This document shows positions 939 to 63,923 of a stretch of 64,000 nucleotides of DNA, in pieces; position 1 is the stretch's first letter; every line of letters begins with the position of its first letter. Source of the stretch: Eledone cirrhosa (lineage: Eukaryota); contig OZ024741.1 in assembly GCA_964016885.1 (NCBI GenBank), positions 175,956,001 to 176,020,000 of the forward strand. The letters run 5' to 3'. The notes beneath the pieces are model-generated. The model did not search any database. It saw nothing but the letters and a program-made list of their open reading frames with translations, and was not told the DNA's origin. Both the position numbers and the translations under genes were made by a program.

Positions 939-1100
939 AAACATTCTGATTAGAAAAAAGGATAAGTATTGGCGTAAATGGGACACAAACCCACATCTTT
1001 AGTTTGCCGGAAAAATGTGTACCATTACACCAAGACGCCACCTAAGCTTCCTTCCACCCAACTGGAAGCTACATAACCATAGCTGGTATATATGTATATA

Positions 1101-5514: not shown

Positions 5515-6361
<847 letters not shown>

Positions 6362-6791: not shown

Positions 6792-6856
6792 TATTTCATT
6801 ATACATATTTCAAGGACACCAAGTTAAATTATGGTGTCCTTTCATCAGACAAAATA
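6792..6856 (-). ncRNA. Type I hammerhead at the PLE 3' end
   Basis: tattttgt CTGATGA aaggacacca..tggtgtcctt GAAA tatgta TA atgaaata: perfect 10-bp stem II. Confidence 0.75.
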
Positions 6857-17873: not shown

Positions 17874-18049
17874 TTATAATAGAATATAAAAGAAAAACGA
17901 ACACGCACATATACATATATGTGTTCACATCGTAAGGGATCGGATTCGCTAAGGTGAAAAGAATACAAACTATAGACAATTGGGTTTGCTTGTCTCAATT
18001 TAAAAAAAAAAAAATAAATAAATACAAACCGGACTTGTGGTAACTACCA

Positions 18050-18124
18050 ATCACCCAGACAACTTGTTGTTTCGCAATGTTAATTGTGAATAGAATTACC
18101 AATTCACGCTCATCAGTGTTTGAT
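18050..18124 (-). ncRNA. Type I hammerhead (inverted-arm copy)
   Basis: atcaaaca CTGATGA gc..gc GAAA caac aa gttg TC tgggtgat. Confidence 0.75.
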
Positions 18125-18640
18125 GAATTAGTATCCTAGACACTTCTAAGTATATTAAGAACTGAATAGTGTGCTATATATAAAATAGCGCACATGGTGT
18201 CCTAGCTTGTCTCACAAACTTACACCACTAAAAATAGCAGCCAGGTTTATTCGACATTTGAAATAGCTCACCAAATTAACGGAGCCGAATATATCATTCT
18301 TATCACCTTACCGAATCCGGTCCCTCACGATTTGAACACATATATGTATATGTCTGTGTTCGTTTTTCTTTTATATTCTATTATAATATACGGCTCGGAA
18401 ATATCTCTTTCTTAGAGTTATTTTGTTGTAAGAAACTATTTTGAGTTCCTAACTCAATATATACCTTTGATATATTCGGCTCCGTTAATTTGTTGAGCTA
18501 TTGCAAATGTCGAATAAACCTGGCTGCTATTTTTAGTGGTGTATGTTTGTGAGACACGCTAGGACACCATGTGCGCTATTTTATATATAGCACACTATTC
18601 AGTTTCTTAATATACTTAGAAGTGTCTAGGATACTAATTC

Positions 18641-18718
18641 ATCACCCACTGATGAGCTTGAATCGGTAATTCTATTCACAATTAACATTGCGAAACAACA
18701 ACAAGTTGTCTGGGTGAT
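18641..18718 (+). ncRNA. Canonical type I hammerhead ribozyme
   Basis: atcaccca CTGATGA gc..gc GAAA caac aacaa gttg TC tgggtgat: perfect 8-bp stem I, 5-bp stem III, GUC. Confidence 0.88.
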
Positions 18719-18961
18719 TGGTAGTTACCACAATTCTGGTTTGTATTTATTTTCTTAAATTTTTCTTAAATTGAGACAAGAAAACCCAATTGTCTATAGT
18801 TAGTATTCTTTTCACCTTAGCGAATCAGGTCCGTTACGATTTGGACACATATATCTATATATCTGTGTTCGTTTTTCTTTTATATTCTATTATAATATAC
18901 GGCTCGGAAATATCTCTTTCTTAGAGCTATTTTGTTGTAAGAGACTAAAAGATTGTAACCA

Positions 18962-19399: not shown

Positions 19400-20340
19400 T
19401 TGGGTCTTTCATATCATTGATGAAATATAGTTGTAAATATGTTGGTTCTTCTTCTGAAAGTGGCTGAAGTAGTCCAATTCTATGGGATACATACCATAGC
19501 ATCTTGAACGTGGGTATAAAGCCACCTTTATGGATATTTGCAGCAAATTACGTCATTTGGAATGCATTATTGTATTTTTGGATTTTGGATTATTTTTGGA
19601 TTGGCAGTATCGGTAGAGGGTCGGACGTCATGCTTTGAAGAAATGAGTTACGGCTCTTTATGATCTGAATTCAAATCCCTCCGAGGTTAACTTTGCCTTT
19701 CAACCTTATGAGGTCGATAAAATAAAGTACCAGTAATACACTGGGATAATTGCTGGCCTTGTGCCAAAAATAGAAACAATTATTGTATTTTTGAATATTT
19801 TGAAGAAAGTATCTTAACTCAGTAGTTGTAGCAATCAAGGGTTCTGGTGATTCAGGTAATAGTTTAAACTTAATTTTTCCATTTAAACAGCACATTGTTT
19901 AGTACCTCAATTTGGACAAATTTTGTTCATTGAGTTCGTTGATTTAAAGGTTCTGAAGCATAGTTATGATGTGAAATGTAACTAAAAGCAATATTTTAAA
20001 ATTATAAATCGTCTGTTCTTGCTCTCTGTTCACATAACCTTTGAGTTGTTTGGAGTTTTATTTCTCTTCATTTTCTACTTTAATCATTTGCAATCTTAAT
20101 GACTTTTGTACATCTGATCCCTCTTGACGAGTAGCTGCTTTCATTGTGCTATCTTTAGCAAGTCTTTTGATCTCTGTTCGTCTCATTCATCCAGTCTATT
20201 TTGTGCACTTCGTATTCTTTGTTGTTAAAGCCTTGATAATCTTTGTGCATCTGATTCATCCTATCTGTTTTGTACTGCAATTTCGTACGTCTCATTTCTC
20301 TTGACTCTGTTGCATTTTCAGCATGTTATCTTAATACCGT
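19400..20340 (-). pseudogene. Helitron RepHel N-terminal relic
   Basis: MCCLNGKIKFKLLPESPEPL..FLQNIQKYN|NAFQMT*FAA..GFIPTFK..HRIGLLQP..EEPTYLQLYF; split by a SINE. Confidence 0.8.
19590..19779 (+). mobile_element. tRNA-SINE family A with target-site duplication
   Basis: Family A sequence flanked by attattgtatttttg duplicates (~19566 and ~19779). Confidence 0.85.
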
Positions 20341-20490: not shown

Positions 20491-21969
20491 TCTTCTGGTT
20501 TTATAATTTCACAAATGTTTGCCAATAGAGAGAGAGAGTCGGTTTCTAACATAGTTACAAAACTCTCTCATTGGAATTTACACAACATCAACTAGGTAGA
20601 TTATCTATGCATGCATGTGTAGATATGGATGTTATTGTATGTGTGGATGTGTGTGTTTTGAGTTGTATGTATGCATGTGCGTACGCTTTATATCTGTACA
20701 TATGTATATGCAGTTATTAGATCCAAATTGTTTGGAATGTTTTACATATTTTTACTGTTCCATTAATGGATGTACTTGTAATTTCCTAAATAGTTGTGTT
20801 CTTTCTGTTTCTGTGAGGCTCAGCTTCTCAAGATTTGTATTGAGGCAGTTACTAACATATCCCAGTGCGCCAATAATCACAGGCATAAATTTGAAGGTAT
20901 AGTCAGAGTGGAGTATCTGCAGATTTCTCATTAGTTCTGCATAAATATTCTCCTTTTCACTAATCTTTGATATTATATTGGCATCTGCTGGGCAGCTAAC
21001 TTCCTCTACTGTGCATGCCTTCTTTTGCCTGTCCCATATCATTATATCTGGTCTGTTATGCCTGCATTTATTGAGGTTTTTACTGGAAAATTCCACCAGT
21101 ACGCTTTCATATTATGTATATGTATGTCTACCACACAGCTGTAGATTTTATTGTGTTTATTATCGGAACAATCTTTTCTACGGATTGCATTGTACATTGT
21201 TTTGGCCACTACATCATGCCTCATAGGTAGATAGTACCGCGATGACATCTTTGGACAGCTGCTTATGGCATGGGTGATATCCTCGATGTTAATTCTGCAG
21301 AGTCTGCACTTGTCACATCTAGGTGTTTTTCCTGCATCCCTATCTCCTTTGTGATTCAGGTATTTCGTGTTGATTTCCTGTTCTTGGATTGCAAAAGCGT
21401 ATCCTTCAAAGTGGGAGCCAATAAAGCGGTTGTTTGTCCAAGATAGACTACTTTATTTGTCTATATTACCTTCACTCTGGAGCTTCCTGGCAACATATCC
21501 ATGCATGATTTTTTGCTGATAAGCATGCAGTTTTTCATCCATGGATTCACTGCGGTAGTGCTGAGCGACTTCCCTGGGTGTGAGTTTTTGATTATCACAC
21601 AGAGTTCCTTCCCAACTCTCATGATCTTATCTGTAGATTGACTTTCTCAAGAGACGGCCTCCTACGCTTCGAGGTTCGTAGATGTCGGAGGAATAGGATG
21701 CGACATTCAAATGCTTTCCGGACTGATGTTAGGCCTCTGTCTCCCTGCTTACGTTTCAGGTAAAGGCGGTCTATGTCACTGTTGATGTGGAAGTTTCCGC
21801 TGTTGTTTAGTACTTTTCGAGTTCTAACATCAATTGCTCAGATTTCGTCATTCGACTAATTGAGTATTCCAAACGTTTGTGTAAGGACAAGCACAGCAAA
21901 CACATTGTGAGCCACTACTTTATTGTGTGCAGAGAGTTCCGATGACCATATTTTTCTTAATCGGGTGTA

Positions 21970-22099: not shown

Positions 22100-22588
22100 T
22101 CATCCCTTGAATCGCAAGAATGTTTTGCAAATTTTGAAGGTGCCAGCTATCGCAGCCATTTGTAGACCATGAATTAGGGAGCTGCGCTTTTTGTCCGCAA
22201 ATCCAAGTTCGGTCATACTTTGGTCCAAGCGGGTTGGTATATAACCCGTAGCACCAATAATGATGGGCACGAAGCTAAAGGCGTATCTTGGATACTGGAT
22301 TTGTAAGCTCCTCATCAATGGTCCGTAGATGTCCTCCTTCTCCTGTATTTTTCTGACAACGTTTACATCAAGTGGGCAGCTGATCTCCACAACAGAACAC
22401 GTTTTCAATGTGTGGTCCCAAACTACAACATCAGGCCGGCCGTGCTTCAATTTGGTGGCAGCCTTTATCTCCAGGCTCCACCAGCATTCCCCAGTGCCAT
22501 CTGTCTCAATATATTCCTCCTCGTTTGCTGTTAATTTTGTTTTCCGAAGTGCGTTCCAGATAGCTCTAGCTATCCCATCGTGTCTCAT
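22100..22588 (-). CDS. Restriction-like endonuclease (RLE) domain, frameshifted continuation of 22585-25608
   Basis: RHD..HGRPDVVVWD..VVEISCP..KEDIY; the related family B copy reads RYYLPMRHD without a break. Confidence 0.92.
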   Translation of the reverse strand: MRHDGIARAIWNALRKTKLTANEEEYIETDGTGECWWSLEIKAATKLKHGRPDVVVWDHTLKTCSVVEISCPLDVNVVRKIQEKEDIYGPLMRSLQIQYPRYAFSFVPIIIGATGYIPTRLDQSMTELGFADKKRSSLIHGLQMAAIAGTFKICKTFLRFKG

Positions 22589-25500
22589 GGGAGGTAGTAG
22601 CGAGATGACATTCTTTCGCAGCTGGCAACAATGTGGCTTACATCCTCGATCTTTGTTTCACATAGCCTACATTTATTGTCAGCTTGCTGCCCTCCTCTTT
22701 TGTGCAGCAGATATTTGGTAGGGGGTTCTTGTTCCTGTATTGCATAGAGATATCCCTCAAGGTATGATGTCATAAACTTGTCGGAACTCCATGCCAGGCT
22801 TTCCGAGTGGTTTATCCCCTCCATGGTCTGTGTTTTACGCCTCAAGTATCCATGCACAACTTTCTCTGTAAATTGGTCAATTTTTTTTTCTTGTTTGAAC
22901 ATTGAATAGGATCCTCCGATTTCTCTGGGTGAGAGATTTATATCAGGCTTCATTCCATATCTCTCCTCCAGATCAGTCGCCACCCCAATGATATTTCTTC
23001 CTTCATGCTCATAAACCTGAGCAAGATGGTCGCCAACCTTTTTCCTCTGTTGAAGGTGCCGCTTCAGTGTTACTATCCGGGTCTCATATGTTGTTAATAT
23101 TGATTTTAGACCCCAGCCACCTTCCTTGCGTGAGAAGTATAGCCCATCCACATCACCATTGATGTTAAAGTTCCCAGTAACACCGAGAAGTTTTCGAGTT
23201 CCAACATCCATCTCACTTAGTTCTTGCAATGACCAGTTCAGTAGGCCAAATGTTGGCGTTAGAATTGGCACAGCATAGGTATTGTGGGCAATGTATTTGT
23301 TGTATGCTGACAGTTCTGATGACCATATTTTTTTTACTCTTCTGAGGTATTCAGTTCTGGTTCTCTCCTTATTTATGGGTCCATCATATCTGACATTCTC
23401 ATCCTGTCCAAGATATCTGTAGTTGTCACCCGACTGCAGAGGCCGCACTGTCAGGCCGTTCATATCCAGACCTCCAGAGGAGGGCACAGCTCCTCCACGC
23501 CCCACTGCCAAATATGCACACTTGGACTCACCAAATTTCATTTTGATGTCGGTCGAAAATTGTGCAACGAGGTCCAACCGTTTCTTGATGCCATTGACAC
23601 TTGGCCCATACAACTTCAGGTCATCAACAAAGAAAAGATGGGAGATACTTCTGGGCCCACTTCTTTGTCCACCTTGTTTCCTGAGTAGGTAAGATAGTGG
23701 ATTCAGTGAGAGAACGAAGAGTAGTACCGACAAGCTATCACCCTGAAAGATGCCCTTCTGGTAATGTATCCCATCAGTCTTAACCTGCTCCCTCTCACCT
23801 CTAAGGATCAAATTGGTGTACCAGTTCTTGGTCAGGCGTTCAACAGCAGCTACTAATGGTTGTGGGACTTTAGCTAACTGTAAAGCCTTAATAATCCACC
23901 CATGAGGTACACTATCAAATGCTTTTTGATAGTCCAGCCACACGACAGTCATGTTTCTGCGATTCTTTGTTGTTTTTTCCTGAATCATTTTGTTAGTTAG
24001 TAGGTGATCTATGCAACCCCACACCTCCCTCTTTCCACCAGCTTGCTCAGGTGTTATGATGTTGTTGGTAGCACAGTGATCCTGTAAGAACAGGTTAAGG
24101 CACCCAGTATATAATTTATACATGATGTTTTGGCAGGCAATTGGGCGGTAATTTTTAGCAAGGGTGGTTTGGCTATTTTGGGGAATGAGGAGAGTAGTGG
24201 CAGTTGATAACCATCTGGGCAGTTCTTGTGTGCCCTTAATGGTTTCTGTAAACAGCCGTATGAGATCTTGCCGATATAAAGTGAAATTCTTCAACCAGTA
24301 TCCTGTAATGAGGTCTGGGCCTGGCGATTTCCTATTCGACATTTTCTGTAGAGCTGTTTCCAGTATTGACCCATCTATGTCATATTGTTTTGTCTGGACA
24401 TGTTGGCAGTAGTCCTGTTCCAGTTGTTTTAGCCAACTAGCTTGTCTGTTGAATCCGTCATCCGTTTCCCATACAGATCTCCAGTAGTTCTCAACCTGTT
24501 CTTTTGAAGGGGTGTCGTTTACAGGGATTGAGATTTTGCCACCGAAGCTGCGATAAACTGATTTAGGATCTCTGGCAAACAATCTATTTAGCACTTGTCG
24601 TTTATGGGCTGTTGACTTATATTTTAGTCTTTCTGTTGTAGCTGTGAGTTGTTGTTTCAACTGGTGTAATTTGGAGTTCAAAGTTTTAAATTTGGTATCT
24701 CCAAATCGTCTCTCTAACTTTTTCTTTAGGTCTTCCTGGTGTCGTGTGAAGTTTCTCTCTATGTTGCATTTCATAACGACTGCGATGTGTGAGATACTTC
24801 GTCTCAGGGACAAAATTTTGGTTTTTAAATTTCGCATCCACGCTGGTTCAGGCTTTCTGTTTGTATCTTGATTGCGTGGTTTTAGATGTGTGTTATATGA
24901 TAGCAATGTGACAGCTGAAACATATAACAAAACATTGAGCGTTTCAAATGTCGTTTCTACACCTTTAGATCGTATAGCCTTCAGATAATTGCCAGCTATT
25001 TCGTTCACTGCTTCCAATTCCAATTTAGTGGGTTCTTTACTGACTCTAGTGTTGTATGGTCTGTCACTCACATTAAGGCTGTGTATCTCTTGAAACATAT
25101 CGTTCCATATCACTTGTAGGGTGCCCACAAGTTTTTGGTGCTCTGTTTGTTCAGTAGAGTCATGAATTGCAGCCTCGTTGTTGATGTGGTGACAATTACT
25201 ACTAGAGTCAGCTGACCTTTCTCGCTGTTCTTCAGTGGAAGTGGGATGGATTTCAGCAAAATTGTTGGTGAGCTGTTCACTGTTAGATTCAGCTGGCCAT
25301 TCTCTTTGTCTGTCAGTGGAGGTGGGGTGGTTGTCTACAAGGGCTGTATTTGTAGTATCACTCGATTCCGTTAGATGTATCAATTTACATCTAATGATAC
25401 GTTTTGCCTGTTCATTTAGATGCTTTGGAGAAAAGTCTAATTCTGGGTGTTTGGAGTTCCATAAAGTTTTTAGCCTTTGCATAAAACCGAACTTTTGAGG

Positions 25501-25608
25501 TTCAGATTGTTTGTATGCTTCATATAATTCTTTGTTAAGCTCGCAGCTCCACTGTATACAACGGTTGTAATTGCGATTTGGTCGAAGGAGACTTGTACTT
25601 TTTGCCAT
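22585..25608 (-). CDS. Non-LTR retrotransposon protein: N-terminal Myb-like region, RT, CCHC knuckle
   Basis: KSPGPDLI, NYRPIAC, WLDYQKAFDSVPH, GIFQGDSLS, LFFVDDLKLY, YRYLG, CRLC..EDVSHIVASC. Confidence 0.95.
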   Translation of the reverse strand: MAKSTSLLRPNRNYNRCIQWSCELNKELYEAYKQSEPQKFGFMQRLKTLWNSKHPELDFSPKHLNEQAKRIIRCKLIHLTESSDTTNTALVDNHPTSTDRQREWPAESNSEQLTNNFAEIHPTSTEEQRERSADSSSNCHHINNEAAIHDSTEQTEHQKLVGTLQVIWNDMFQEIHSLNVSDRPYNTRVSKEPTKLELEAVNEIAGNYLKAIRSKGVETTFETLNVLLYVSAVTLLSYNTHLKPRNQDTNRKPEPAWMRNLKTKILSLRRSISHIAVVMKCNIERNFTRHQEDLKKKLERRFGDTKFKTLNSKLHQLKQQLTATTERLKYKSTAHKRQVLNRLFARDPKSVYRSFGGKISIPVNDTPSKEQVENYWRSVWETDDGFNRQASWLKQLEQDYCQHVQTKQYDIDGSILETALQKMSNRKSPGPDLITGYWLKNFTLYRQDLIRLFTETIKGTQELPRWLSTATTLLIPQNSQTTLAKNYRPIACQNIMYKLYTGCLNLFLQDHCATNNIITPEQAGGKREVWGCIDHLLTNKMIQEKTTKNRRNMTVVWLDYQKAFDSVPHGWIIKALQLAKVPQPLVAAVERLTKNWYTNLILRGEREQVKTDGIHYQKGIFQGDSLSVLLFVLSLNPLSYLLRKQGGQRSGPRSISHLFFVDDLKLYGPSVNGIKKRLDLVAQFSTDIKMKFGESKCAYLAVGRGGAVPSSGGLDMNGLTVRPLQSGDNYRYLGQDENVRYDGPINKERTRTEYLRRVKKIWSSELSAYNKYIAHNTYAVPILTPTFGLLNWSLQELSEMDVGTRKLLGVTGNFNINGDVDGLYFSRKEGGWGLKSILTTYETRIVTLKRHLQQRKKVGDHLAQVYEHEGRNIIGVATDLEERYGMKPDINLSPREIGGSYSMFKQEKKIDQFTEKVVHGYLRRKTQTMEGINHSESLAWSSDKFMTSYLEGYLYAIQEQEPPTKYLLHKRGGQQADNKCRLCETKIEDVSHIVASCERMSSRYYLP

Positions 25609-26249
25609 GATGAGTTCGTCTATTCACTAATATTTTGTATTTATTTTTTTTAAATAGTCGATGATCTTCTTTAAAAGTTACGACAAAGTTCTGTCAGAAT
25701 CAAATTTAAAGTTATTCACAGCTTGGGTAATATTTCTCTTCAGTTAGTTTTTAATTCTACAACTGTGTTTTAAACGTTGTTCTTGAATCGTTTGAATCGA
25801 GAACAAAAAGAACCGTTACTTAGTATATTCCTTTACGAATGCAACATAATATAACAACGCTGTATTTATATGTTAAAGTTTATGTATCATTCATATAAAT
25901 AGGTGTTCTACAACATATTCACAACATTCACAGTTCAAACACTTATATTTTTGTTTCTGAATCGAAAACGTTACTTCTATATTTCTTTATAAATGCAATA
26001 TAACAACGTTGCATTTATATGTTAAAGTATATGTATCGTTCATATATCATAAGTGTATGTATCGTTCATATAAATAGGTGTTTTACAACACACTTACAGT
26101 TCAAACACTTATGTAGAATTATTGTATGTAATCTTACCGCGTAATGTAGCTCAACTTTTTCCAATATATGGTATGTTGCCTTCATGTAAGCCGTAATTAC
26201 ACACGTCCGATTATCGGACACTGACCACAACGGTCGCCATATGTACGCC

Positions 26250-26918: not shown

Positions 26919-27402
26919 TTTCTCTTTCTCTTAATTTCGAGTATATTTTTTTTGACCGGCCACCTTCCTGGTGGCAAGGTTGTAAAAGAAAAGAAATTGT
27001 CATCCCTTGAATCGCAAGAATGTTTTGCAAATTTTGAAGGTGCCAGCTATCGCAGCCATTTGTAGACTATGAATTAGGGAACTGCGCTTTTTGTCCGCAA
27101 ATCCAAGTTCAGTCATACTTTGGTCTAAGCGGGTTGGTATATAACCCGTAGCACCAATAATGATGGGTATGAAGCTAAAGGTGTATCTTGGATACTGGAT
27201 TTGTAAACTCCTCATCAATCGTCCGTAGATGTCCTCCTTCTCCTGTATTTTTCTGACAACGTTTACATCAAGTGGGCAGCTGATCTCCACAACAGAACAC
27301 GGTTTCAATGTGTGGTCCCAAACTACAATATCAGGCCGGTTGTGCTTTAATTTGGTGGCAGTTTTTATTTTCAGGTTCCACCAGTATTCCTTAGTGCCAT
27401 TT
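26919..27402 (-). mobile_element. R4/Dong family A, 5'-truncated copy
   Basis: Highly similar to 22019-22500 with the same 3' end; (TATG)n on both sides. Confidence 0.92.
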
Positions 27403-27814: not shown

Positions 27815-28062
27815 TTCTTCTGGTTTTATAAATTCACAAAGTTCTACCAATAGAGAGAGAGTCGGTTTCTAACATAGACCCTAGACTCTCTCAGTGGAAT
27901 TTACACAACATCAACTAGGTAGATATGCATGCATGTGTAGATATGGATGTTATTGTATGTGTGGATGTGTATGTTTTGAGTTTATGTGTGCATGTGTATA
28001 TGCTTTGCATCTGTGTATATGCAGTTATTAGATGCAAAATGTTTGGAATGTTTTACATATTT
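27815..28062 (-). mobile_element. R4/Dong family B 3' UTR fragment
   Basis: Matches 20491-20752 including the 3' terminus. Confidence 0.85.
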
Positions 28063-31335: not shown

Positions 31336-31372
<37 letters not shown>

Positions 31373-31428
31373 GAGGTAAAATAAGAAAATTTTAAAAATT
31401 AAAAATTAACTTACTTACTGAAATTTTC

Positions 31429-31510
31429 ACTCCAACTAATTAGTTTCTGTAATGGGATAAAGATAGTTACGTAATGTAACTGTCGAGAATTCATTACGTC
31501 ATCAGGGAGT
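31429..31510 (-). ncRNA. Type I hammerhead, copy 1
   Basis: actcc CTGATGA cgtaatg..cattaca GAAA ctaattag TT ggagt. Confidence 0.8.
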
Positions 31511-31968
31511 CTATTCTCAGCTAAGTCTCCAGGCAATGCGCGGACACTAGGGACTCATATAAAAATAATAATAATTCGGTGGATGGAACAGCTAGCGAGG
31601 ACTGAACTCCAAAGCACCGAAAAAGTTCACTGCCTCTGGTCAAATGGCAGATTCTAAAGAATCAATCACGTGACACTGAGGCTAGTCGGAAGGAGTGGGG
31701 TAGTAAAATGACAAAGCCTACTACCACAACAATAAGTTAGTAGTGGATTTGGCAGGTTTGCTCAACAAATAAATAATTTGGAGATAAATATAGAGAATTA
31801 GTATATCTACGAACATATGCGTACAGATGTATACTAATGCTAGCAAATACATAAGTTATGTCATAGTACCTAGGTGGTTCAATGCAGGAGGATGCAGAAC
31901 AATTATATGAAAGACGTAAAATAATAAAATTTTAAAAATTAAAAATTAACTTACTTACTAAAATTTTC

Positions 31969-32050
31969 ACTCCAACTAATTAGTTTCTATAATGGGATAA
32001 AGATAGTTACGTAATGTAACTGTCGAGAATTCATTACGTCATCAGGGAGT
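31969..32050 (-). ncRNA. Type I hammerhead, copy 2
   Basis: Same motif 540 nt from copy 1. Confidence 0.8.
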
Positions 32051-32160
32051 CTATTCTCAGCTAAGTCTCCAGGCAATGCGCGGACACTAGGGACTCATAT
32101 AAAATTAATAATAATTCGGTGGAGTGTCCGCGCATTGCCTGGAGACTTAGCTGAGAATAG

Positions 32161-32242
32161 ACTCCCTGATGACGTAATGAATTCTCGACAGTTACATTAC
32201 GTAACTATCTTTATCCCATTATAGAAACTAATTAGTTGGAGT
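32161..32242 (+). ncRNA. Type I hammerhead, inverted copy 3
   Basis: actccCTGATGAcgtaatg...cattataGAAActaattagTTggagt. Confidence 0.8.
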
Positions 32243-32410
32243 GAAAATTTTAGTAAGTTAACTTTTAATTTTTAAAATATTCTTATTTTACGTCTTTCAT
32301 ATAATTGTTCTGCATCCTCCTGCATTGAACCACCTAGGTACTATGACATAACTTATGTATTTGCTAGCATTAGTGTACATCTGTACGCATATGTTCGTAG
32401 ATATACTAAT

Positions 32411-32457
<47 letters not shown>

Positions 32458-32458
<1 letters not shown>

Positions 32459-32630
32459 GGAAAAGAGTCAGGACCCCGACAACTAGATCCGAACGCTGTC
32501 GAAACGGCGGGGCTCAGCCGTCAGTGTCCTGACTCTTTTCCTCTTACCCACTCTACTACACAAAGTATTGAGTACACTAGTGCGTTATGATCCACCTGGT
32601 AACTTACCACACCCTCTTTGCTCTTTGTTT
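32458..32630. mobile_element. Short inverted-arm PLE-type insertion with the 3' half of a hammerhead
   Basis: gtc GAAA cggc..gccg TC agtgtcctgactcttttcct; homologous to 62175-62340. Confidence 0.65.
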
Positions 32631-34134: not shown

Positions 34135-35072
<938 letters not shown>

Positions 35073-35149
35073 ATATATATATATATATATACTTTATACT
35101 TTATATATATAGACTTTAATGTATTCGTGAGTAAATAATAATGATTTTT

Positions 35150-35358: not shown

Positions 35359-35385
35359 CGTGAGTGAATGATACTGATATTATAT

Positions 35386-36344
35386 AACTAGACATGAAAA
35401 ATGCGCAAGCTCAAAAGTGCCACAGAATGTTATAATAAACCTTCAAAAGTGTGGGACTAGAGTTGTTGCTAAAAAATATTGTAATCATTATATATCGTAC
35501 ATTCTGTGGCATCCTTTATAAAAATAGCTTAAACCAACGAAGCCTTTATTTTTACGCTATTTCACTTAGTTAATTCTTAGAGTGTAACATATAAAAATAT
35601 GATTTACAACTATAAAATAAATTAATTAATATAATAACAGAGCTGCGGAGCTGAAATTTAGGAAATAATGGAGTATCGGATCCTGAGTTGGAGCCAGTCA
35701 ATTTTTGACCGACTCCGCAGCCCTGTATAATACATTTCATATTAAAGTTATTAATAAACCTATTTTACACTTCATGCAAATTACCACGAGATATTGATAT
35801 TAGATATAAGATACAGCGCAATATCTACAGCTGTAAAAGTACGAAAGCGAAGTAATAATAAGTGGCTTAAGGTAATTCCAATATGAAAGTTTGTAGTGAT
35901 AAAAATTTGATAATGCAATACGATTGTTAATATTATAGTTCTATGAAAATGTAACAATAGATAACTAAATTATTTTACTATTAGTATATTTAAGAAATTA
36001 TCATTATAGATTTGATCGTTCATATAAGCATCATATTAAGTTTCAACACAATTATTTTGTTACTATGAGTATATGATAATAATATTACGTAATTATTTAT
36101 AGCTGTTATTACATTAAACATAGATGTATTTATTTTTATATGTTACACTCTAAGAATTAACTAAGTGAAATAGCGTAAAAATAAAGGCTTCGTTGGTTTA
36201 AGCTATTTTTATAAAGGATGCCACAGAATGTACGATATATAATGATTACAATATTTTTTAGCAACAACTCTAGTCCCACACTTTTGAAGGTTTATTATAA
36301 CATTCTGTGGCACTTTTGAGCTTGCGCATTTTTCATGTCTAGTT
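35386..36344. mobile_element. Fold-back element with 214-bp apparently perfect inverted repeats
   Basis: 35386-35599 is the reverse complement of 36131-36344; AT-rich spacer. Confidence 0.75.
35638..35725. mobile_element. Tiny hAT-like MITE
   Basis: TIRs cagagctgcggag / ctccgcagccctg; flanks tataataa / tataatac (7 of 8 match as TSD). Confidence 0.7.
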
Positions 36345-36907
36345 TAATATTTTTTTAAGGCAACGCTTGTAATAACTCTAGTTAAACAGGATATATATTA
36401 ATAATAAATTATCGTTGTAATGTAATTAGATTATGTAATTGTTATTATAAATTATCTTATAAATATTAGTGTAAGATGTATAAAAATATTTTCAGACTTT
36501 TAATATAAACAACTACAAAAAACAATCAATATTAAATCAATATATTATACATAATAGAAAACATAAAATATACAATACAAAAACAAAATATTTACATACA
36601 TTTGCAATTATCAGTGTATATACATTTTCTTTATATTCCCTGAGCAAATTAATAAGATTTGTTTTTATTGTACATAATTTGATGACTTGTTGGAGTGTAT
36701 TAAAAGATAGCAACAATTTGTGATTAAATTGTTATCTTAAGCAACTCACTTTTTAATAGTTGTTGGCTGAGCGAAATTGTAAAAGCCTATGAGCAAATAT
36801 AAAAAAAAATACACAAACAACATTTCCTTGTGTTATTACAACATTAGATAAAATAATTGAGCAATGTCGTTATATTTTGCTCTTATTGCACATTAATAGT
36901 GTTTCTA

Positions 36908-50867: not shown

Positions 50868-51052
50868 GTGGATTGGCAGTATCGGTAGAGGGTCGGACTC
50901 CATGCTTTGCATGAAGGAGTTACGGCCCTTTGCGGTCTGAGTTCAAATCCCGCCGAGGTTAACTTTGCCTTTCATCCTTACAGGGTCGATAAAAAAAATA
51001 CCAATAATACACTGGGATAATTGCTGGCCTTGTTCCAAAGGTAGAAACATTT
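50868..51052 (+). mobile_element. tRNA-SINE family A
   Basis: gtggattggcagtatcggtagag..gagttcaaatcccgccgaggttaactttgcc. Confidence 0.88.
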
Positions 51053-52288
51053 ATTTCTTTAAACCAATAAAATATAATTGAGGCACCATAATTCCAAGCT
51101 TAAATTTCCAATACTCCTTTTTACCGAGTGGGCAAATGATCAAATTGATCATCTAGCTTTAGTAAACCTATTGTCACACAGTTTGCTCAATGATAATTTT
51201 GTAACTCATTTACGCATATTTTTTCCAAAACTTCATTTTATTAAATATATTCTAAAACATGTTTTATATGTACATTTTGTCAGCCGCTACTTTCTTGTAT
51301 ATGTGTTCCATTCATAGGTGTGGTTGTGGCTTTAGAAATCTACCAGCAATATTTTATTTCAATCTGTTTCATTAACTACTTTTCTGTTAGTACGTTTGTA
51401 GTTTAACTGATATCAGAGATTTTGTTGCTCTGTCAATATTCGTTTTATGTAAAAAGAGTCACTATGGTAGTATATGGCTTGAGGTGAATGAAAACAAATG
51501 TGTGTGGTTGTAGAACGAAAATACATGTGAAAGAAAGCAGACAGGTGGGAAAGAGGGAAGAATGGAGATAACAAGAGAGAAAGATAGAAAATATATATAT
51601 TTCTTCTTTTTTGTAAAGTTAGATGCACCAAATAAATTTTTTATAAAAGAAGAATCTGTAAGTTTTCAGATCTCAAAACATTTCAAAATGTTTACACATC
51701 CAAAGAGAATGTTTCATACAGCAAATTACTTCTTTGAAATCTGGACTTTCATGTTTGCTTTAGAATTTCTAACAAACCTGTCCCTATGTAGAATTTTGAC
51801 ATATAATTAAACTTGACAGCTGTAATGCCTTGATAGATAGTTACTACAGTTCCTCTCAAATATAACCACACGGTGTTTTGACTAGTTTGCTATAGATTGA
51901 GAGGATTTCATAATACAAATTCTAAATCACTTAAATACGTTCACAGCTTTTATTCAAGTTACTCATAGTTAGATTGTATGTTGTTGATGTTGTATAGAGC
52001 AGACCTATGATCAAAGAAACCATTCCAGCCACCAACATTGTGTAATCTTTTTATATCAGCGAGTATGTAATTCAATCTATCTCTTTTAGGAAGAATTGAC
52101 TGTTGATTCTAGCATCTTGTGTGACACATTTATAGGTTTGTATAAAGACGTAACTTTTGATTGATTCGTAGGGGTGCCGTAGGGATCTGAGGCATTTAAA
52201 ACCTGGTGGGGATCATCCTTCTCCAGCTGATCTCTTTCAGAGTAGGTGAGAGAGAGAGGGATATATGTATATTAGAGAGAGAGAGAAA

Positions 52289-56901: not shown

Positions 56902-57116
56902 TTATGATATGTAGGTATGCGCCTGCTAGAAAGTAAGATAAGGAAATAATATGAGTGAGTGTATATATATATGTATATATAAAATATGTAGTTTAGAAAG
57001 CCACAACAATGCAGATGGGAAATCTCGAGGTCAGAAGTGAGTGAGAAATAGGAGAAAAGTGAAAATGAAAATGAAAACAAAACAAAGGTAGAAGGTTTAC
57101 CGTAGTGGAGATTTAA

Positions 57117-57152
57117 TCCCAATATTTCGGGCTCACGCCCATCAACGGGGGA
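57117..57152 (-). ncRNA. Hammerhead-like variant (CCGUUGA core) in the pLTR
   Basis: tccc CCGTTGA t gggc gtga gccc GAAA ta TT ggga. Confidence 0.6.
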
Positions 57153-57591
57153 AAGTTCCAAAAGGGGGGGGGGGGCAGGCTAAGCCGGAGAAAGTTGTAT
57201 TGTCGTTAAAACATAGGAATGCCGTTATGGGGAAAATTCAAACGAGGGAAAGAATGCGCGTGCGGTGATAGGATGTGGCAAAAGCTACTGACCAATTGGG
57301 TTAAATCAATAGGGTGCGCTAGCGTGTGAAAGCCGTAAAATATGTGTGTGTAAATATATATGTGTGTGTAACTGTGTGTGTATATGTGTATGTGTGTATG
57401 TATGTGAGTGTGTGTGTGTGAAAGATAGTGGGCCGTAGAAGCTGGAAAACAAAGAGTGTGAAAGGTGGTAGGTTGTATAAACATGTGTGCGTGTATAAAT
57501 ATAGATGTGTGTGTGTATGTGTATGGGTATACATATAAGTGCGTGTGTGTGAGAGATAGTAGGTCGTAGGGGTTGTTACTGGTCACTATGG

Positions 57592-58677
57592 TTAAATTAG
57601 CCATGTCAGCTCATTTCTCTCAGCCCGGTTGTTAAGTGGGGGTCTGAGGTTCTTAATAACAAGTGCTTCCTTTATCCTTAAGGATCCGATGCTGCGTTCA
57701 GTCGCTAGGACTGTGACCAAGGGTCTGCCCTGTGGGTTTCCGCATTTAAGGATGTGTTTACGGAAGGAAGATGCGTTGGTGTTGACATGTTCCTTGATAC
57801 GAACATGTAGGGGTCGGATGGTGCTACCTATGTAGAACTTGTTACATTTATCGCATTGAATCTTATATACAACATAGGTGCGTAGGCAATCTGCCCCCCG
57901 TATCGGGCAGTTGCTGAGGGAACACGTCCCATCTGACTCGTCGGGTTTGTTGGAGAGGCATCTTCGGAGCGAAGGTCCTGTGTGGGCCAAATGTATGTCA
58001 AGTCCTTCCCTCCGTATGGCCCTGCGGATGGCGTTCGTGGTATATTCACTCAGGTGGGGGATTTTAAAGAAGCACCTGCTTTTATCTAAGTTTCTAGTGG
58101 GTGTCTGTCTATTGGGTCTGGGGTCTCTAATTCCGTTAATCAGTCGCTTGGGATATCCATTAGACTTGAGTAGATTACGGAATTGCGTGGTATGGGTAAG
58201 ACCACCCATCGGGTCGCTGCATCTATTAGTGATCCGTGTAAGTTCATTTAGGACATAGCCTCTCTTAGCGTTGTTGGGGAGGGCTGAGTTGTAATGCACA
58301 AATAAGTCCTTGCACGCTGCCTTGCGGTAGAAGGTGGTGTTTATGTCTCCTTCTTCCGAGATGTTGATACGGAAGTCGAGGAGGGCGAGTGACCCGTCTT
58401 CTCCAGGGTGTTCGATGGTGAAATCGACGTGATGGTCAGTGTCGTTGAAGATTTGGTGAATTTCATTCGCCATCTCCCGGGAAGAAGTGAGTATCAGTAT
58501 GTCATCGACGTATCTGGAGTAGAAGGCGACGGCGTTGGGTTGGCAGGTGTTGAGTGCCTTGCGTTCCAGGTGGTCCATGTACGAGATCGCAAGTATGCCG
58601 GACAGACTAGAGCCCATAGGCAGCCCAGAGATCTGTTTGTACGTGTGGCCGAGGAAATTGAAGAATGCATTATCCAC
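57592..58677 (-). CDS. Penelope-like RT plus GIY-YIG endonuclease (frame extends to ~58940 across one TGA at 58747-58749)
   Basis: SLDVVALYTSVP upstream; QISGLPMGSSLSG, SRYVDDI, FYRK, VVYKIQCDKCNKFYIGST..RIKEH..IKEALVI..P.LN. Confidence 0.93.
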   Translation of the reverse strand: MDNAFFNFLGHTYKQISGLPMGSSLSGILAISYMDHLERKALNTCQPNAVAFYSRYVDDILILTSSREMANEIHQIFNDTDHHVDFTIEHPGEDGSLALLDFRINISEEGDINTTFYRKAACKDLFVHYNSALPNNAKRGYVLNELTRITNRCSDPMGGLTHTTQFRNLLKSNGYPKRLINGIRDPRPNRQTPTRNLDKSRCFFKIPHLSEYTTNAIRRAIRREGLDIHLAHTGPSLRRCLSNKPDESDGTCSLSNCPIRGADCLRTYVVYKIQCDKCNKFYIGSTIRPLHVRIKEHVNTNASSFRKHILKCGNPQGRPLVTVLATERSIGSLRIKEALVIKNLRPPLNNRAERNELTWLI

Positions 58678-59096
58678 AACGAAGGAGAGGAGTTGGTGGA
58701 TGTCCGTGTGTGTGAGTCCGAAGCAGTGTAAGTTAGATGCTCGGACTCATTCGGTCAACAGGTCGGCGGCTGGGGATGCTGGTACGGAGGTATAAAGGGC
58801 GACCACATCAAGACTGAAGGCATATCCGTTGTCCTTTCTGGTGTTGGGCGCCAGATGGTGTAGTCGCTCCAACAACTCCTTTGAGCTGCAGACGTGGGCT
58901 GGTAGTGTGTGTATAATGGGTTTCAGTAGTGTATATACACACTACGTGAGAAATGTGTAAGGGATGAAAGGAGATAAGGAAAGGTAGATAACAGATAGTC
59001 GAGGTTCTGGATGGTACGAGTGTCTGTACACACTCACATAGATATTATAAGATGAAACAAACTTTTTTCTATATTATATATGTATTATGTAAAACA

Positions 59097-60424: not shown

Positions 60425-60994
60425 ATATATATATATATATATAAATATATATGTATATATGTAATAGATATTAATAATATATATATATATTTATAATATT
60501 AACGATAAGGAGCAGGAACGAAGTATAAATATAACATACACTATATATGTCGATATATATATGTGTGTGTAAACAATACTTAATAGAAAATATATGGACC
60601 CTCATGAAAGACGAAGATAAAATTATTACATTCGATTCAACTTTTATGATTTTATGTCGAATATTCAATTCGTCACTAGAAATTTTTCGAACACATATTG
60701 TTTCTTTTTTACATATAGCTGCCCTCTCTACCACTAACTGTTCATCTCTGAAATAAATGTGGAAACCATTTTTGGTGTCCACTCGCTAGTTTCTTTTATT
60801 AAATATCTGTGAACCAAAGAAGACTCGTACAGATGAACCAAGAGTTGATCTATTGATACAGGAGATGACGAAGGTGTGGTGTGACAAGTTGTGAGACGGA
60901 AACGTTGAAACTGAGCTTCCTCGTCTGCCAGCCCTGTAATGGGGACGGAAAAAGTATTCATCACGAAGATGAAGATGATGGAACAATCACACAT

Positions 60995-61176
60995 AATTGT
61001 TTCTACGTTAGGCACAAAGCCAGCAAATACCCAGTGCATTACTGGTACTTTATTTTATCGACCTAGTAAGGATGAAAGGCAAAGTTAACCTTGGCGGGAT
61101 TTGAACTCAGAATGGCAAGGGCCGTAACTCTGTGCGTCAAAGCATGGCGCCCGACCCTCTACCGATACTGCCAATC
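60995..61176 (-). mobile_element. tRNA-SINE family A
   Basis: Reverse complement of 50868-51052. Confidence 0.87.
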
Positions 61177-61184
61177 ATAGAATA

Positions 61185-61425: not shown

Positions 61426-61574
61426 TGCAATTGTCCATAATATAACGAAAAGTTGACGAAACGTTGCTACATAAAGATAATTATTTAATCGGTATTGAAC
61501 ACTCTTTCTCGCGTTTATCAATACTAAACGTATATATATATGTATATATATGTATATATATGTATATATATGTA

Positions 61575-62063
61575 TAAAATATGTAGTTTAGAAAGCCACA
61601 ACAATGCAGATGGGAAATCTCGAGGTAAGAAGTGAGTGAGAAATAGGAGAATAGTGAAAATTGAGAGAAACGAAAATGAAAACAAAACAAAGGTAGAAGG
61701 GTTACCGTAGTGGAGATTTAATCCTAATATTTCGGGCTCACGCCCATCAACGGGGGAAAGTTCCAAAAGGGGGGGAACAGGCTAAGCCGGAGAAAGTTGT
61801 ATTGTCGTTAAAACATAGGAATGCCGTTATGGGGAAAATTCAAACGAGGGAAAGAATGCGCGTGTGCGTGATATATGGGATTAAATCTCTACTACGGTAA
61901 CCCTTCTACCTTTGTTTTGTTTTCATTTTCGTTTCTCTCAATTTTCTCTATTCTCCTATTTCTCACTCACTTCTTACCTCGAGATTTCCCATCTGCATTG
62001 TTGTGGCCGTCTAAACTACATATTTTACACATTTCGCAATGCTTCAAGCAAACTTTAACACCC

Positions 62064-62174: not shown

Positions 62175-62336
62175 GTATAAAAAAGGTGTGGTAACATACC
62201 AAGTGGACCATAATGCACCAGAGTACTCGATACTTAGAGTAGTAGAGTGGGTAATAGGAAAAGAGTGAGGACCACGTTCGGATCTAGCAGTCGAAACGGC
62301 CGAAGGTCAGCCGTCAGGGTCCTGACTCTTTTCCTA

Positions 62337-62340
<4 letters not shown>
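62175..62340. mobile_element. Short inverted-arm insertion with the 3' half of a hammerhead
   Basis: ctagcagtc GAAA cggc..gccg TC agggtcctgactcttttcc; same family as 32458-32630. Confidence 0.65.
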
Positions 62341-62384
<44 letters not shown>

Positions 62385-62453
62385 TATGAAGAGAGAGGAA
62401 ACATTTAGATATAATTAGTAATAAAATGTATCATACCTAAACTGTTCCTAAAT

Positions 62454-62541
62454 TCCTCGACTACGTAGTTTCGTGGCATAAACAAAAACAATATATCAAA
62501 GATATAGAGTCCTTGCGAGGTCTGCCGACTTATCAAGAGGA
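62454..62541 (-). ncRNA. Type I hammerhead, U3-A8 variant (copy 1)
   Basis: tcctc TTGATAA gtcggca..tgccac GAAA ctacgtag TC gagga. Confidence 0.82.
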
Positions 62542-63044
62542 TACCTCATTTTACTAGTCTCAAGAACGCGTCTACACGACGTGAGAAAGAATCCCAAAAG
62601 GCGGAGGGGGAGACAGTCACGCGATATAACGGTCGAGAAACAGAGCTAAGCCTCTTATAACCACGAAGAAAATACCACGGAGGCGGAGGGGGTATTCATA
62701 TCGAGGCCGTAGAAGAGGTAGTGAAGAAGGCGAGAAGTATGAGTAATGGAAGCTTTCCAGTTGTCCCCACACTTCAAAGATTGCTCGACCAGAGGGAGTT
62801 ATTAATATATTTAGAAACACACAGATACATGCGGACACACACATATATACATGAATGCATCCGCACCCAACTGTGAGTTAAGGGTGCCAACTTCACCGAT
62901 GTTGCTCAATGAATGACTGGGACAGACCAATTCAGTTTGAACCAGACTGAACCAGTATCAGAGTTAAAAATACATTATGAAGAGAGAGGAAACATTTAGA
63001 TATAATTAGTAATAAAATGTATCATACCTAAACTGTTCCTAAAT

Positions 63045-63132
63045 TCCTCGACTACGTAGTTTCGTGGCATAAACAAAAACAATATATCAAAGATATAGAG
63101 TCCTTGCGAGGTCTGCCGACTTATCAAGAGGA
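63045..63132 (-). ncRNA. Type I hammerhead, U3-A8 variant (copy 2)
   Basis: Identical motif 591 nt from copy 1. Confidence 0.82.
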
Positions 63133-63471
63133 TACCTCATTTTACTAGTCTCAAGAACGCGTCTACACGACGTGAGAAAGAATCCCAAAAGGCGGAGAGG
63201 GAGACAGTCACGCGATATAACGGTCGAGAAACAGAGCTAAGCCTCTTATAACCACGAAGAAAATACCACGGAGGCGGAGGGGGTATTCATATCGAGGCCG
63301 TAGAAGAGGTAGTGAAGAAGGCGAGAAGTATGAGTAATGGAAGCTTTCCAGTTGTCCCCACACTTCAAAGATTGCTCGACCAGAGGGAGTTATTAATATA
63401 TTTAGAAACACACAGATACATGCGGACACACACATATATACATGAATGCATCCGCACCCAATATATATATA

Positions 63472-63917
63472 TAAAGAATTAATATCTAGTAACATATATA
63501 TATGTTACTAGATATTAATTCTTTATAATTATCTCCAAATTATTTGTCGAGCAATATTGGCCAGGACTGCTGCCATGGCAGCAGGCAGGCCGCTGTCTTC
63601 TTAACAAACCACTTTCCACTGATTGACCTCGATGTCACGTGATTGATTCTTTTTGAATTGCCACCGACGCAGTAGGCAGTGATTTTCTCAATGGCTAGGA
63701 ATTCAGTCCACGCTTTGCTATTTTCTATCCACTGAATTATTTTTGTATAAGTTTCCAGAGTCCACGCTTTGACTGGATACTTAGCTGAGAATAGACTTCC
63801 CTGACGACGAAATGATTCTCTATATTTTCTTCGGAAAGTATATTTATTCCATTTCAGAAACTAATTAGTTGGGAGCGAAATTTTAGTAAGTTAATTTTAT
63901 AATTTTCTTATTTTACG

Positions 63918-63923
<6 letters not shown>
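63472..63923 (+). mobile_element. Diverged relative of the 540-nt retrozyme-like family
   Basis: Shares atctccaaattattt, gtcacgtgattgattc, ttagctgagaatagact and the 3' end with 31369-32412; starts with a ~54-nt palindrome. Confidence 0.8.
63796..63875 (+). ncRNA. Type I hammerhead
   Basis: cttcc CTGACGA cgaaatg..catttca GAAA ctaattag TT gggag. Confidence 0.8.

Follow-up and report, generated by a model that had tools for sequence, protein, structure and literature searches.

The tandem repeat with a period of 540 nt that is described here carries hammerhead motifs on both strands, which raises the questions what kind of element it represents and whether its variant hammerhead fold is maintained by selection and able to cleave. 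It is located in a 64,000-nt stretch of Eledone cirrhosa DNA (referred to as the window), which is microsatellite-rich and AT-rich. On the minus strand the main element reads R (32123-31909), U (31908-31584), R (31583-31369) and (TA)n, with a unit of 540 nt that is composed of a repeat R of 215 nt and a non-coding unique part U of 325 nt. The two copies of R on the minus strand, R1 (31369-31583), which resembles a 3' pseudo-LTR, and the upstream pseudo-LTR-like copy R2 (31909-32123), have 215 nt each and are 97.7% identical (2.3% difference). R1 ends 65 nt past the predicted cut of its hammerhead, and R ends just before ATA. A sequence-only reading of the locus had proposed a 540-nt tandem, of which the period holds, but the tandem does not contain two full units: it extends over 1.4 units, with 215 of 540 nt in the second, partial one. 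At its 3' end the main element borders on a (TA)n run (31338-31368), which is likely the insertion target, and at the opposite end on (CT)n followed by (TA)n (32411-32458), neither of which is assigned to a strand. Between R2 and this opposite end lie, on the plus strand, an inverted 5'-truncated copy of R (32123-32298), with a 34-nt spacer separating the arms, and a tail (32299-32410) that corresponds to the first 112 nt of U with one mismatch and continues into (CT)n. No target-site duplication was seen at the main element beyond the microsatellites. A coding remnant in U was considered and rejected, since U has no ORF (the longest stop-free stretch in the three sense frames is 56 aa) and gave no tblastn match to the Penelope-like element (PLE) protein of the window. 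The GC content of the main element is 36%, and a cut-to-cut monomer of 540 nt is predicted to fold with 59% of its nucleotides paired. A small TIR element forming a long hairpin is present at 32459-32619 and again at 62179-62339, and each copy adjoins the (TA)n end of a hammerhead-bearing element, the one described here (family A) and that of a second family (family C, see below), respectively.

A scan for type I hammerheads identified four family A motifs in the window. As the sequence-only reading had stated, two of them are located exactly one period apart on the minus strand (31510-31429 and 32050-31969) and a third lies in the inverted arm (32161-32242, plus strand), whereas the fourth (63796-63875, plus strand) belongs to a diverged relative. 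Hammerhead 1 (31429-31510, minus strand) consists of a 5-bp stem I, CUGAUGA, an extra C (31498), a 6-bp stem IIa opening with G-C, an internal loop, a 6-bp hairpin IIb, an extra A (31448), GAA and the palindrome ACUAAUUAGU, and its predicted cut is after U17 (31434). In hammerhead 2 (31969-32050, minus strand) the first stem II pair is G.U and the predicted cut lies at 31974, so that the predicted cuts of both are 540 nt apart, and hammerhead 3 (32161-32242, plus strand) lies in a stretch of 134 nt that is identical to the one around hammerhead 2. The stem II that had been reported as cgtaatg/cattaca is therefore correct for copy 1, but copies 2 and 3 have cattata. The hammerhead of the relative has the same core except for N7, the extra C and A, the same palindrome, and a different IIb hairpin with a UUCG loop; its predicted cut is at 63870. 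All four motifs share a palindromic helix III (ACUAAUUAGU; palindrome ACTAATTAGT) with the NUH triplet GUU, the C and the A at the base of stem II, a core of CUGANGA plus one unpaired nucleotide before stem II (CUGAUGAC or CUGACGAC), and a stem I of 5 bp, the PLE consensus being 4-5 bp. The claim that both lineages retain the C and A, the palindrome and GUU was thus confirmed in every motif. When folded with the core held open, helix I is predicted as 5 bp, an internal loop and 7 further bp, helix IIa as 6 bp followed by an internal loop and a hairpin IIb of at least 6 bp, and the monomeric helix III as 3 bp. The 7-bp extension of helix I beyond the internal loop (31415-31521 for copy 1, minus strand) also emerges when all copies and the relative are folded freely. 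Helix II of family A closes an interior of 37 nt that contains a second hairpin. The sequence-only reading had noted neither this hairpin nor the helix I extension, nor the PLE-type layout of the insertion or the sister families described below. Among the predicted internal loops of helices I and II, no known loop 1-loop 2 contact motif was identified. Just upstream of stem I an invariant block of 17 nt is found in both lineages (31510-31530, minus strand; 63776-63795, plus strand), which has AG before stem I and forms the helix I extension. By analogy to the pLTR of Penelope in D. virilis, as described in PMC4209133, this block could be a candidate 3' splice site.

Hammerhead cores are short and loose patterns match by chance, and Rfam gave no hammerhead match, so that the motif might be regarded as a coincidence within a repeat that was duplicated locally or assembled wrongly. 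Indeed, a search of the whole window against Rfam at gathering score returned no hammerhead family, and relaxing the limit to E = 10 for 31415-31908 and 62420-63889 did not change this; sub-threshold Rfam matches to miRNA and pseudoknot families were dropped, as they reflect AT-rich hairpins. However, the 15-mer AGAAACTAATTAGTT, which includes the palindrome, occurs four times in the window against 0.02 expected, and none of 100 shuffles reached four. A descriptor with a relaxed core, a perfect palindromic stem III and at least 4 bp in stem I yielded seven matches in the window, each of which combines a stem I of 5 bp with a palindrome of 10 nt, whereas 20 shuffles gave three matches in total, none with a palindrome of at least 8 nt and a stem I of at least 5 bp. 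Loose-pattern scans returned 94 loci in metagenomes and 120 of an estimated ~340 loci in viral contigs, all of them with a stem I below 4 bp; these were discarded as chance matches, and they never reach the 5 bp found in all four family A motifs. In the metagenome scan the sole blastn match below E = 0.001 was located in the AT-rich end and outside the motif. Moreover, the divergence is 2.3% between R1 and R2 and ~27% for the relative, and between 0.23 and 0.58 of the sampled words were recovered in four public runs (three of one sample, one of a second), which come from one study, possibly the source, and are thus not independent. Of the 17 matches listed in the read search, 10 represent small shares (0.04-0.15) in other organisms and were set aside, and no RNA run with family A words is among these 17. 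Together with the pairing in the relative described next, the 15-mer count and the descriptor matches against shuffles refute a chance origin, which we consider extremely improbable.

The relative (63500-63923, plus strand) comprises R together with the greater part of U, adjoins (TA)n downstream and is preceded by a short inverted arm of 22 nt (63478-63499, minus strand). Over 416 aligned columns of U and R it is ~73% identical to the main element, i.e. ~27% diverged, and it shares U from about position 90 on. Its short arm and the tail of the main element stop at the same homologous position of U, both before ATAT. Only a short (TA)n (63461-63478) separates this arm from the 5' end of the family C tandem, the two families being inserted head to head in one microsatellite. 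With three near-identical copies and one relative, the window holds two independent lineages of family A. In the four-row alignment all 25 named pairs hold in all rows, and three of them (one in IIa, two in IIb) changed on both sides, whereas in slid controls 28-46% of the cells are paired. The two outer pairs of stem I were left out of this count because an indel shifts the register, although each lineage still forms 5 bp. The sequence-only reading had seen compensatory changes in stem I; its length of 5 bp is indeed kept, but a single inserted pair with loss of the outer pair is the simpler explanation. Comparing copy 2 with the relative, 10 of 11 core positions and 10 of 10 positions of the palindrome are identical, the single differing core position being the free N7, compared with 36 of 46 among the other paired positions and 48 of 65 among the unpaired ones. 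According to a neutral model, stems I and IIa remain paired with a probability of 0.012 and all four helices with one of 7e-5, where two of the helices were chosen after seeing the sequences: the second hairpin (IIb) and the stem I extension were picked from these same sequences. The core and the palindrome remain unchanged with a probability of 0.048 each. Paired positions change nearly as often as unpaired ones and yet no pair breaks, which, on the evidence of two lineages, supports the view that the hammerhead fold is under selection.

The same model does not extend this to the C.A at the base of helix II, as both nucleotides stay unchanged with a probability of 0.55, and its conservation was rejected as a sign of selection. 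What survives of the earlier argument from compensatory changes is thus selection on the fold, but not the C.A as a selected novelty, all the more as the C corresponds to the H of the published CUGANGAH. The consensus of PLE hammerheads is CUGANGAH, G10.1...C11.1, GAAA, palindrome and NUH (PMC4209133, Figure S3), and several of the published rows have C as the extra nucleotide. It is therefore likely, from the sequence comparison, that the C is the known unpaired nucleotide 9a, in which case the first pair of helix II is G-C in copy 1 and the relative and G.U in copies 2 and 3. In contrast to the consensus, GAAA does not directly follow 11.1, but an extra A intervenes in all four motifs. This departs from the consensus but has a precedent, since one of 56 published PLE hammerhead rows, the 29th, prints AGAAA (PMC4209133); by row order we infer that it belongs to the PLE of Cotesia bracovirus. 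The extra A is likely an added nucleotide between 11.1 and G12 that would stack on the C as a 1x1 mismatch, and it likely lowers the cleavage rate. Palindromes of 10 nt (Aedes, one Saccoglossus row) and GUU triplets are already published (PMC4209133). An axolotl retrozyme whose helix II begins with a U.U mismatch still cleaves well in dimeric form (PMC7229834), and the same mismatch is described in other natural hammerheads (PMC3088659). In the parts of the literature covered, no test of C/A at this position was found, which is a weak negative. The same holds for the long two-part helix II. The main catalogue of PLE hammerheads contains many variants (Lunse, Weinberg and Breaker, 2017, PMC5785218, according to the review PMC6765202), and that of family A may already be part of it.

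Whether this fold cleaves is a matter of its competitors and of its dimer. The palindrome is predicted to form a duplex with a second copy at -9.0 kcal/mol, compared to +1.5 kcal/mol for the monomer hairpin. For the natural 686-nt RNA the double hammerhead was calculated at -162.0, two single folds at -159.9 and the free minimum at -169.5 kcal/mol; the dimer gains 2.1 kcal/mol over two monomers, and both hammerhead folds are less stable than the free minimum, by 7.5-9.6 kcal/mol. In these models the dimer fold is thus weakly favoured in family A and competing folds exist, mainly in copies 2 and 3, for which a different structure with stem IIa disrupted represents the free minimum. In family C the respective values are -210.8, -199.2 and -215.6 kcal/mol, and because the dimer fold is predicted to be favoured by 11.6 kcal/mol, family C is the better test substrate. 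Single copies of 96 nt are not significantly more stable than shuffles (z -1.6, -1.1 and +0.1), whereas a circular fold of the cut-to-cut monomer exceeds all 40 shuffles in stability (z -4.3; family C, z -6.4). Slow cleavage of family A as a dimer after GUU is slightly more likely than not, and a 540-nt circle in vivo appears somewhat doubtful. Experience with related ribozymes is rather discouraging: minimal PLE hammerheads cleave weakly (PMC4209133), one of nine Xenopus retrozyme dimers was cleaved (bioRxiv 10.64898/2026.07.22.740005), and the hammerhead of an Anolis PLE depends on protein, can be dispensed with during insertion in vitro and showed no read ends where it should cut (PMC11167929). 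Accordingly, the element could be as described here, with a hammerhead that is dead or nearly so, its fold being retained for the PLE protein to bind or to prime from, or as a promoter element, so that neither monomer nor circle would arise. This would be compatible with the identity as a PLE passenger proposed below, and it is suggested by the extra A before G12, next to a pair (10.1-11.1) that is the most conserved one beside A15.1-U16.1 (PMC3088659), by the predicted competing folds, by the unaffected insertion of the Anolis hammerhead mutants in vitro, and by the eight of nine Xenopus dimers that did not cleave. On the other side, 10 of the 11 core positions are unchanged between the lineages with the free N7 as the exception, a sister family carries a U3-A8 core covariation that was published as natural and active (PMC4209133, PMC3088659), and the axolotl retrozyme tolerates its U.U at the base of helix II. 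We therefore regard a dead hammerhead as a possible, though rather unlikely explanation.

With respect to its identity, the main element is probably a non-autonomous PLE passenger that is copied in trans by a Penelope-like reverse transcriptase-endonuclease. PLE insertions are described as partial tandems with an adjacent inverted 5'-truncated copy, a tail and a microsatellite target (Craig et al., 2021, PMC8557442), and each of these features is found at the main element. An ORF with RT and GIY-YIG between the pseudo-LTRs, which is a trait of autonomous PLEs, is absent from it. Non-autonomous PLEs have been described as well (PMC8557442), and animal retrozyme families of 51-972 bp were proposed to be non-autonomous PLE derivatives (bioRxiv 10.64898/2026.07.22.740005). 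The window itself harbors a 5'-truncated PLE ORF with RT and GIY-YIG (57592-58746, minus strand; GIY-YIG 22.1 bits, cut-off 22.6), and therefore the genome holds PLEs. An autonomous partner with a matching 3' end was not found within the 64 kb of the window, the sole PLE ORF having a different 3' end. The tail of 112 nt, which exceeds the described 30-40 bp (PMC8557442), and the genomic ends of the main element, which lie off the cut site, speak against this interpretation. Alternatively, there might be no independent short element at all: an autonomous PLE with a long non-coding 3' end would have left 5'-truncated copies of this end, in tandem and inverted, and the 540-nt period would be a one-off truncation. 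PLE insertions are indeed mostly 5'-truncated partial tandems with an inverted copy (PMC8557442), and the window contains one family A tandem junction, whose cDNA the inverted arm may share. However, the ~27% diverged relative shares U from about position 90 and the same end position in U, and three other families of the window have similar periods (487, 509 and 591 nt) and interiors that are non-coding where examined, which renders this alternative unlikely. For a PLE passenger, the following cycle can be proposed. An RNA spanning two copies would fold into the predicted double hammerhead; pairing between the 10-nt palindromes of both copies would supply its helix III, which a single copy is predicted to form only weakly. 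A slow or protein-assisted cleavage after GUU might then release the 540-nt monomer, which is perhaps circularised; such a unit-length product, as proposed in the sequence-only reading, would be expected from the spacing of the two motifs. The PLE protein would nick (TA)n, and reverse transcription would start at AU-rich points, either at the end of R or ~115 nt into U; PLE tails were traced to two start sites of reverse transcription (Frangieh et al., PMC11167929). On a multimeric or circular template more than one unit could be copied, and a fold-back or a second priming event could give rise to the inverted arm.

Besides family A, three further families with hammerheads are present in the window. 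Family B (34278-35074, period ~487) is a partial tandem with an inverted arm between (TA)n runs and a tail of ~114 nt; its hammerhead (34434-34351, minus strand) has the palindrome ACCGCGCGGU, a GUA triplet and a helix II domain of 53 nt with G.U pairs at its base. Family C (62382-63461, minus strand) is a 591-nt tandem beside (TA)n with a repeat of 489 nt that is 99.8% alike. Its two hammerheads (62541-62454 and 63132-63045, minus strand) are 591 nt apart and contain the U3-A8 core, the palindrome ACUACGUAGU, a GUC triplet and a bulged helix II domain of 57 nt. Family F (17874-18947, period 509) is bounded by (TA)n on both sides and includes an inverted arm and a tail of 143 nt. With its 8-bp stem I and a 5-bp hairpin as helix III, the predicted hammerhead of family F (18641-18718, plus strand) might function in monomeric form, and an altered second copy lies near 18030-18140 on the minus strand. 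The unique parts of families A, B and C share no sequence beyond 13-nt matches, and a sequence kinship of the three was thus rejected. Hence, three unrelated families within 64 kb carry long-armed hammerheads with a helix II domain of 50-57 nt, and each has its own 10-nt palindrome. Read jointly, they might represent an overlooked hammerhead subtype with a 5-bp helix I, a two-part helix II of 50-57 nt with a weak base and a 10-nt AC-N6-GU palindrome, which would occur in many non-autonomous PLE passenger families of this lineage that are unrelated to one another, and would be missed by Rfam as well as by descriptors with short loops. The family-specific palindrome would then act as a pairing code that restricts cleavage to members of the same family, either in cis within a tandem or in trans between different RNAs, and the extra A as a selected brake that makes cleavage dependent on a partner or the PLE protein. 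We put this forward as a speculative and rather improbable extension.

The remaining window contains further repeats. A LINE-type ORF of 1012 aa with RVT_1 and zf-RVT domains is encoded at 22585-25623 (minus strand), with partial copies at 20491-20751, 26919-27400 and 27816-28062 that end in (ATGT)n. Such content, along with the truncated PLE ORF, is indicative of an animal genome. The 3' end of the PLE ORF (56962-57270) recurs as an inverted pair at 61557-62032 and includes a hammerhead-like variant, UUGAUGG...GAAAUAUU, with an imperfect fit to the core. A lone hammerhead-like motif at 6792-6856 (minus strand), which has an 8-bp stem I, a 10-bp stem II, a short helix III and a fold z of -4.9, is located near a 72-nt inverted repeat (5636-5707 and 6160-6231). 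At 35377-36350 there is a 219-nt inverted repeat, 99% complementary with a 531-nt spacer, in which the same descriptors detected no hammerhead. A weak tRNA match at 970-1039 (minus strand; 31.5 bits, cut-off 29) is likely the head of a SINE. Finally, a dispersed repeat of 150-190 nt has at least 10 copies in the window (e.g., 19591-19783, 50868-51055 and 60993-61184) and may resemble octopus SINEs.

The kind of element found here is already in print, and from its sequence the modestly unusual part appears to be the long two-part helix II with a second hairpin. Since the long-armed motifs of three families in 64 kb are invisible to Rfam, hammerheads are probably undercounted in the genomes of such animals, and descriptors need to allow for a longer helix II. 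In addition, a short, recent-looking copy, with repeats that are 97.7% alike and two predicted ribozymes 540 nt apart, provides a compact test set, in which the base of helix II varies from C/A plus G-C or G.U (family A) to G/U (family B) and a bulge (family C). With this set it can be addressed whether PLE hammerheads cut, whether a partner or a protein is needed and whether circular RNA serves as template.

Compared with known systems, family A is similar to the hammerheads in metazoan PLE pseudo-LTRs (Cervera and de la Pena, 2014, PMC4209133), with which it shares the type I topology, the extra nucleotide of CUGANGAH, G10.1-C/U11.1, a 5-bp helix I, a palindromic helix III, GUU, an AU-rich 3' flank and copies on opposite strands a few hundred bases apart. 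It differs from them by the extra A before GAAA, by the lack of an ORF between the repeats and by its 37-nt interior with a second hairpin, where the loops are 3-9 nt in the 56 published rows by our own reading. The axolotl HHR_Amex2 and hammerheads with U10.1-U11.1 have a non-standard pair at the base of helix II as well and still cleave (PMC7229834, PMC3088659), although there the mismatch is U.U instead of C/A. Regarding insertion, MRC1 of Chlamydomonas and PLE insertions in general (PMC8557442) show the same pseudo-LTR tandem, inverted 5'-truncated copy, tail and microsatellite, but the tail has 30-40 bp there and 112 nt in family A. Eight Naiads, two of them from cephalopods, are described with core halves 35-50 nt apart ('HHR_half_core'; Craig et al., PMC8557442). 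No link of family A to Naiad elements was found: three 13-nt motifs had no match in the Naiad supplement, where line breaks can hide a match, and the consensus of Naiad_Ovul, one of the eight, is unlike family A by eye. Hammerheads have further been reported in roughly 500-bp satellite repeats of crickets (PMC2837043). From the non-LTR retrozymes (Cervera and de la Pena, 2020, PMC7229834) family A is set apart by its unit of 540 nt, which is longer than their repeats of 150-450 bp, by a PLE-like hammerhead instead of a canonical one with known loop 1-loop 2 contacts, and by its 1.4 units with inverted arm and tail and no detectable target-site duplication. It has in common with them a non-coding head-to-tail unit with one type I hammerhead each, a GC content below 50% (36%), a monomer that is predicted to be self-paired and the co-occurrence with PLEs, and with 540 nt it falls within the 51-972 bp of the retrozymes of Li, Clavereau and Pollet (2026, bioRxiv 10.64898/2026.07.22.740005).
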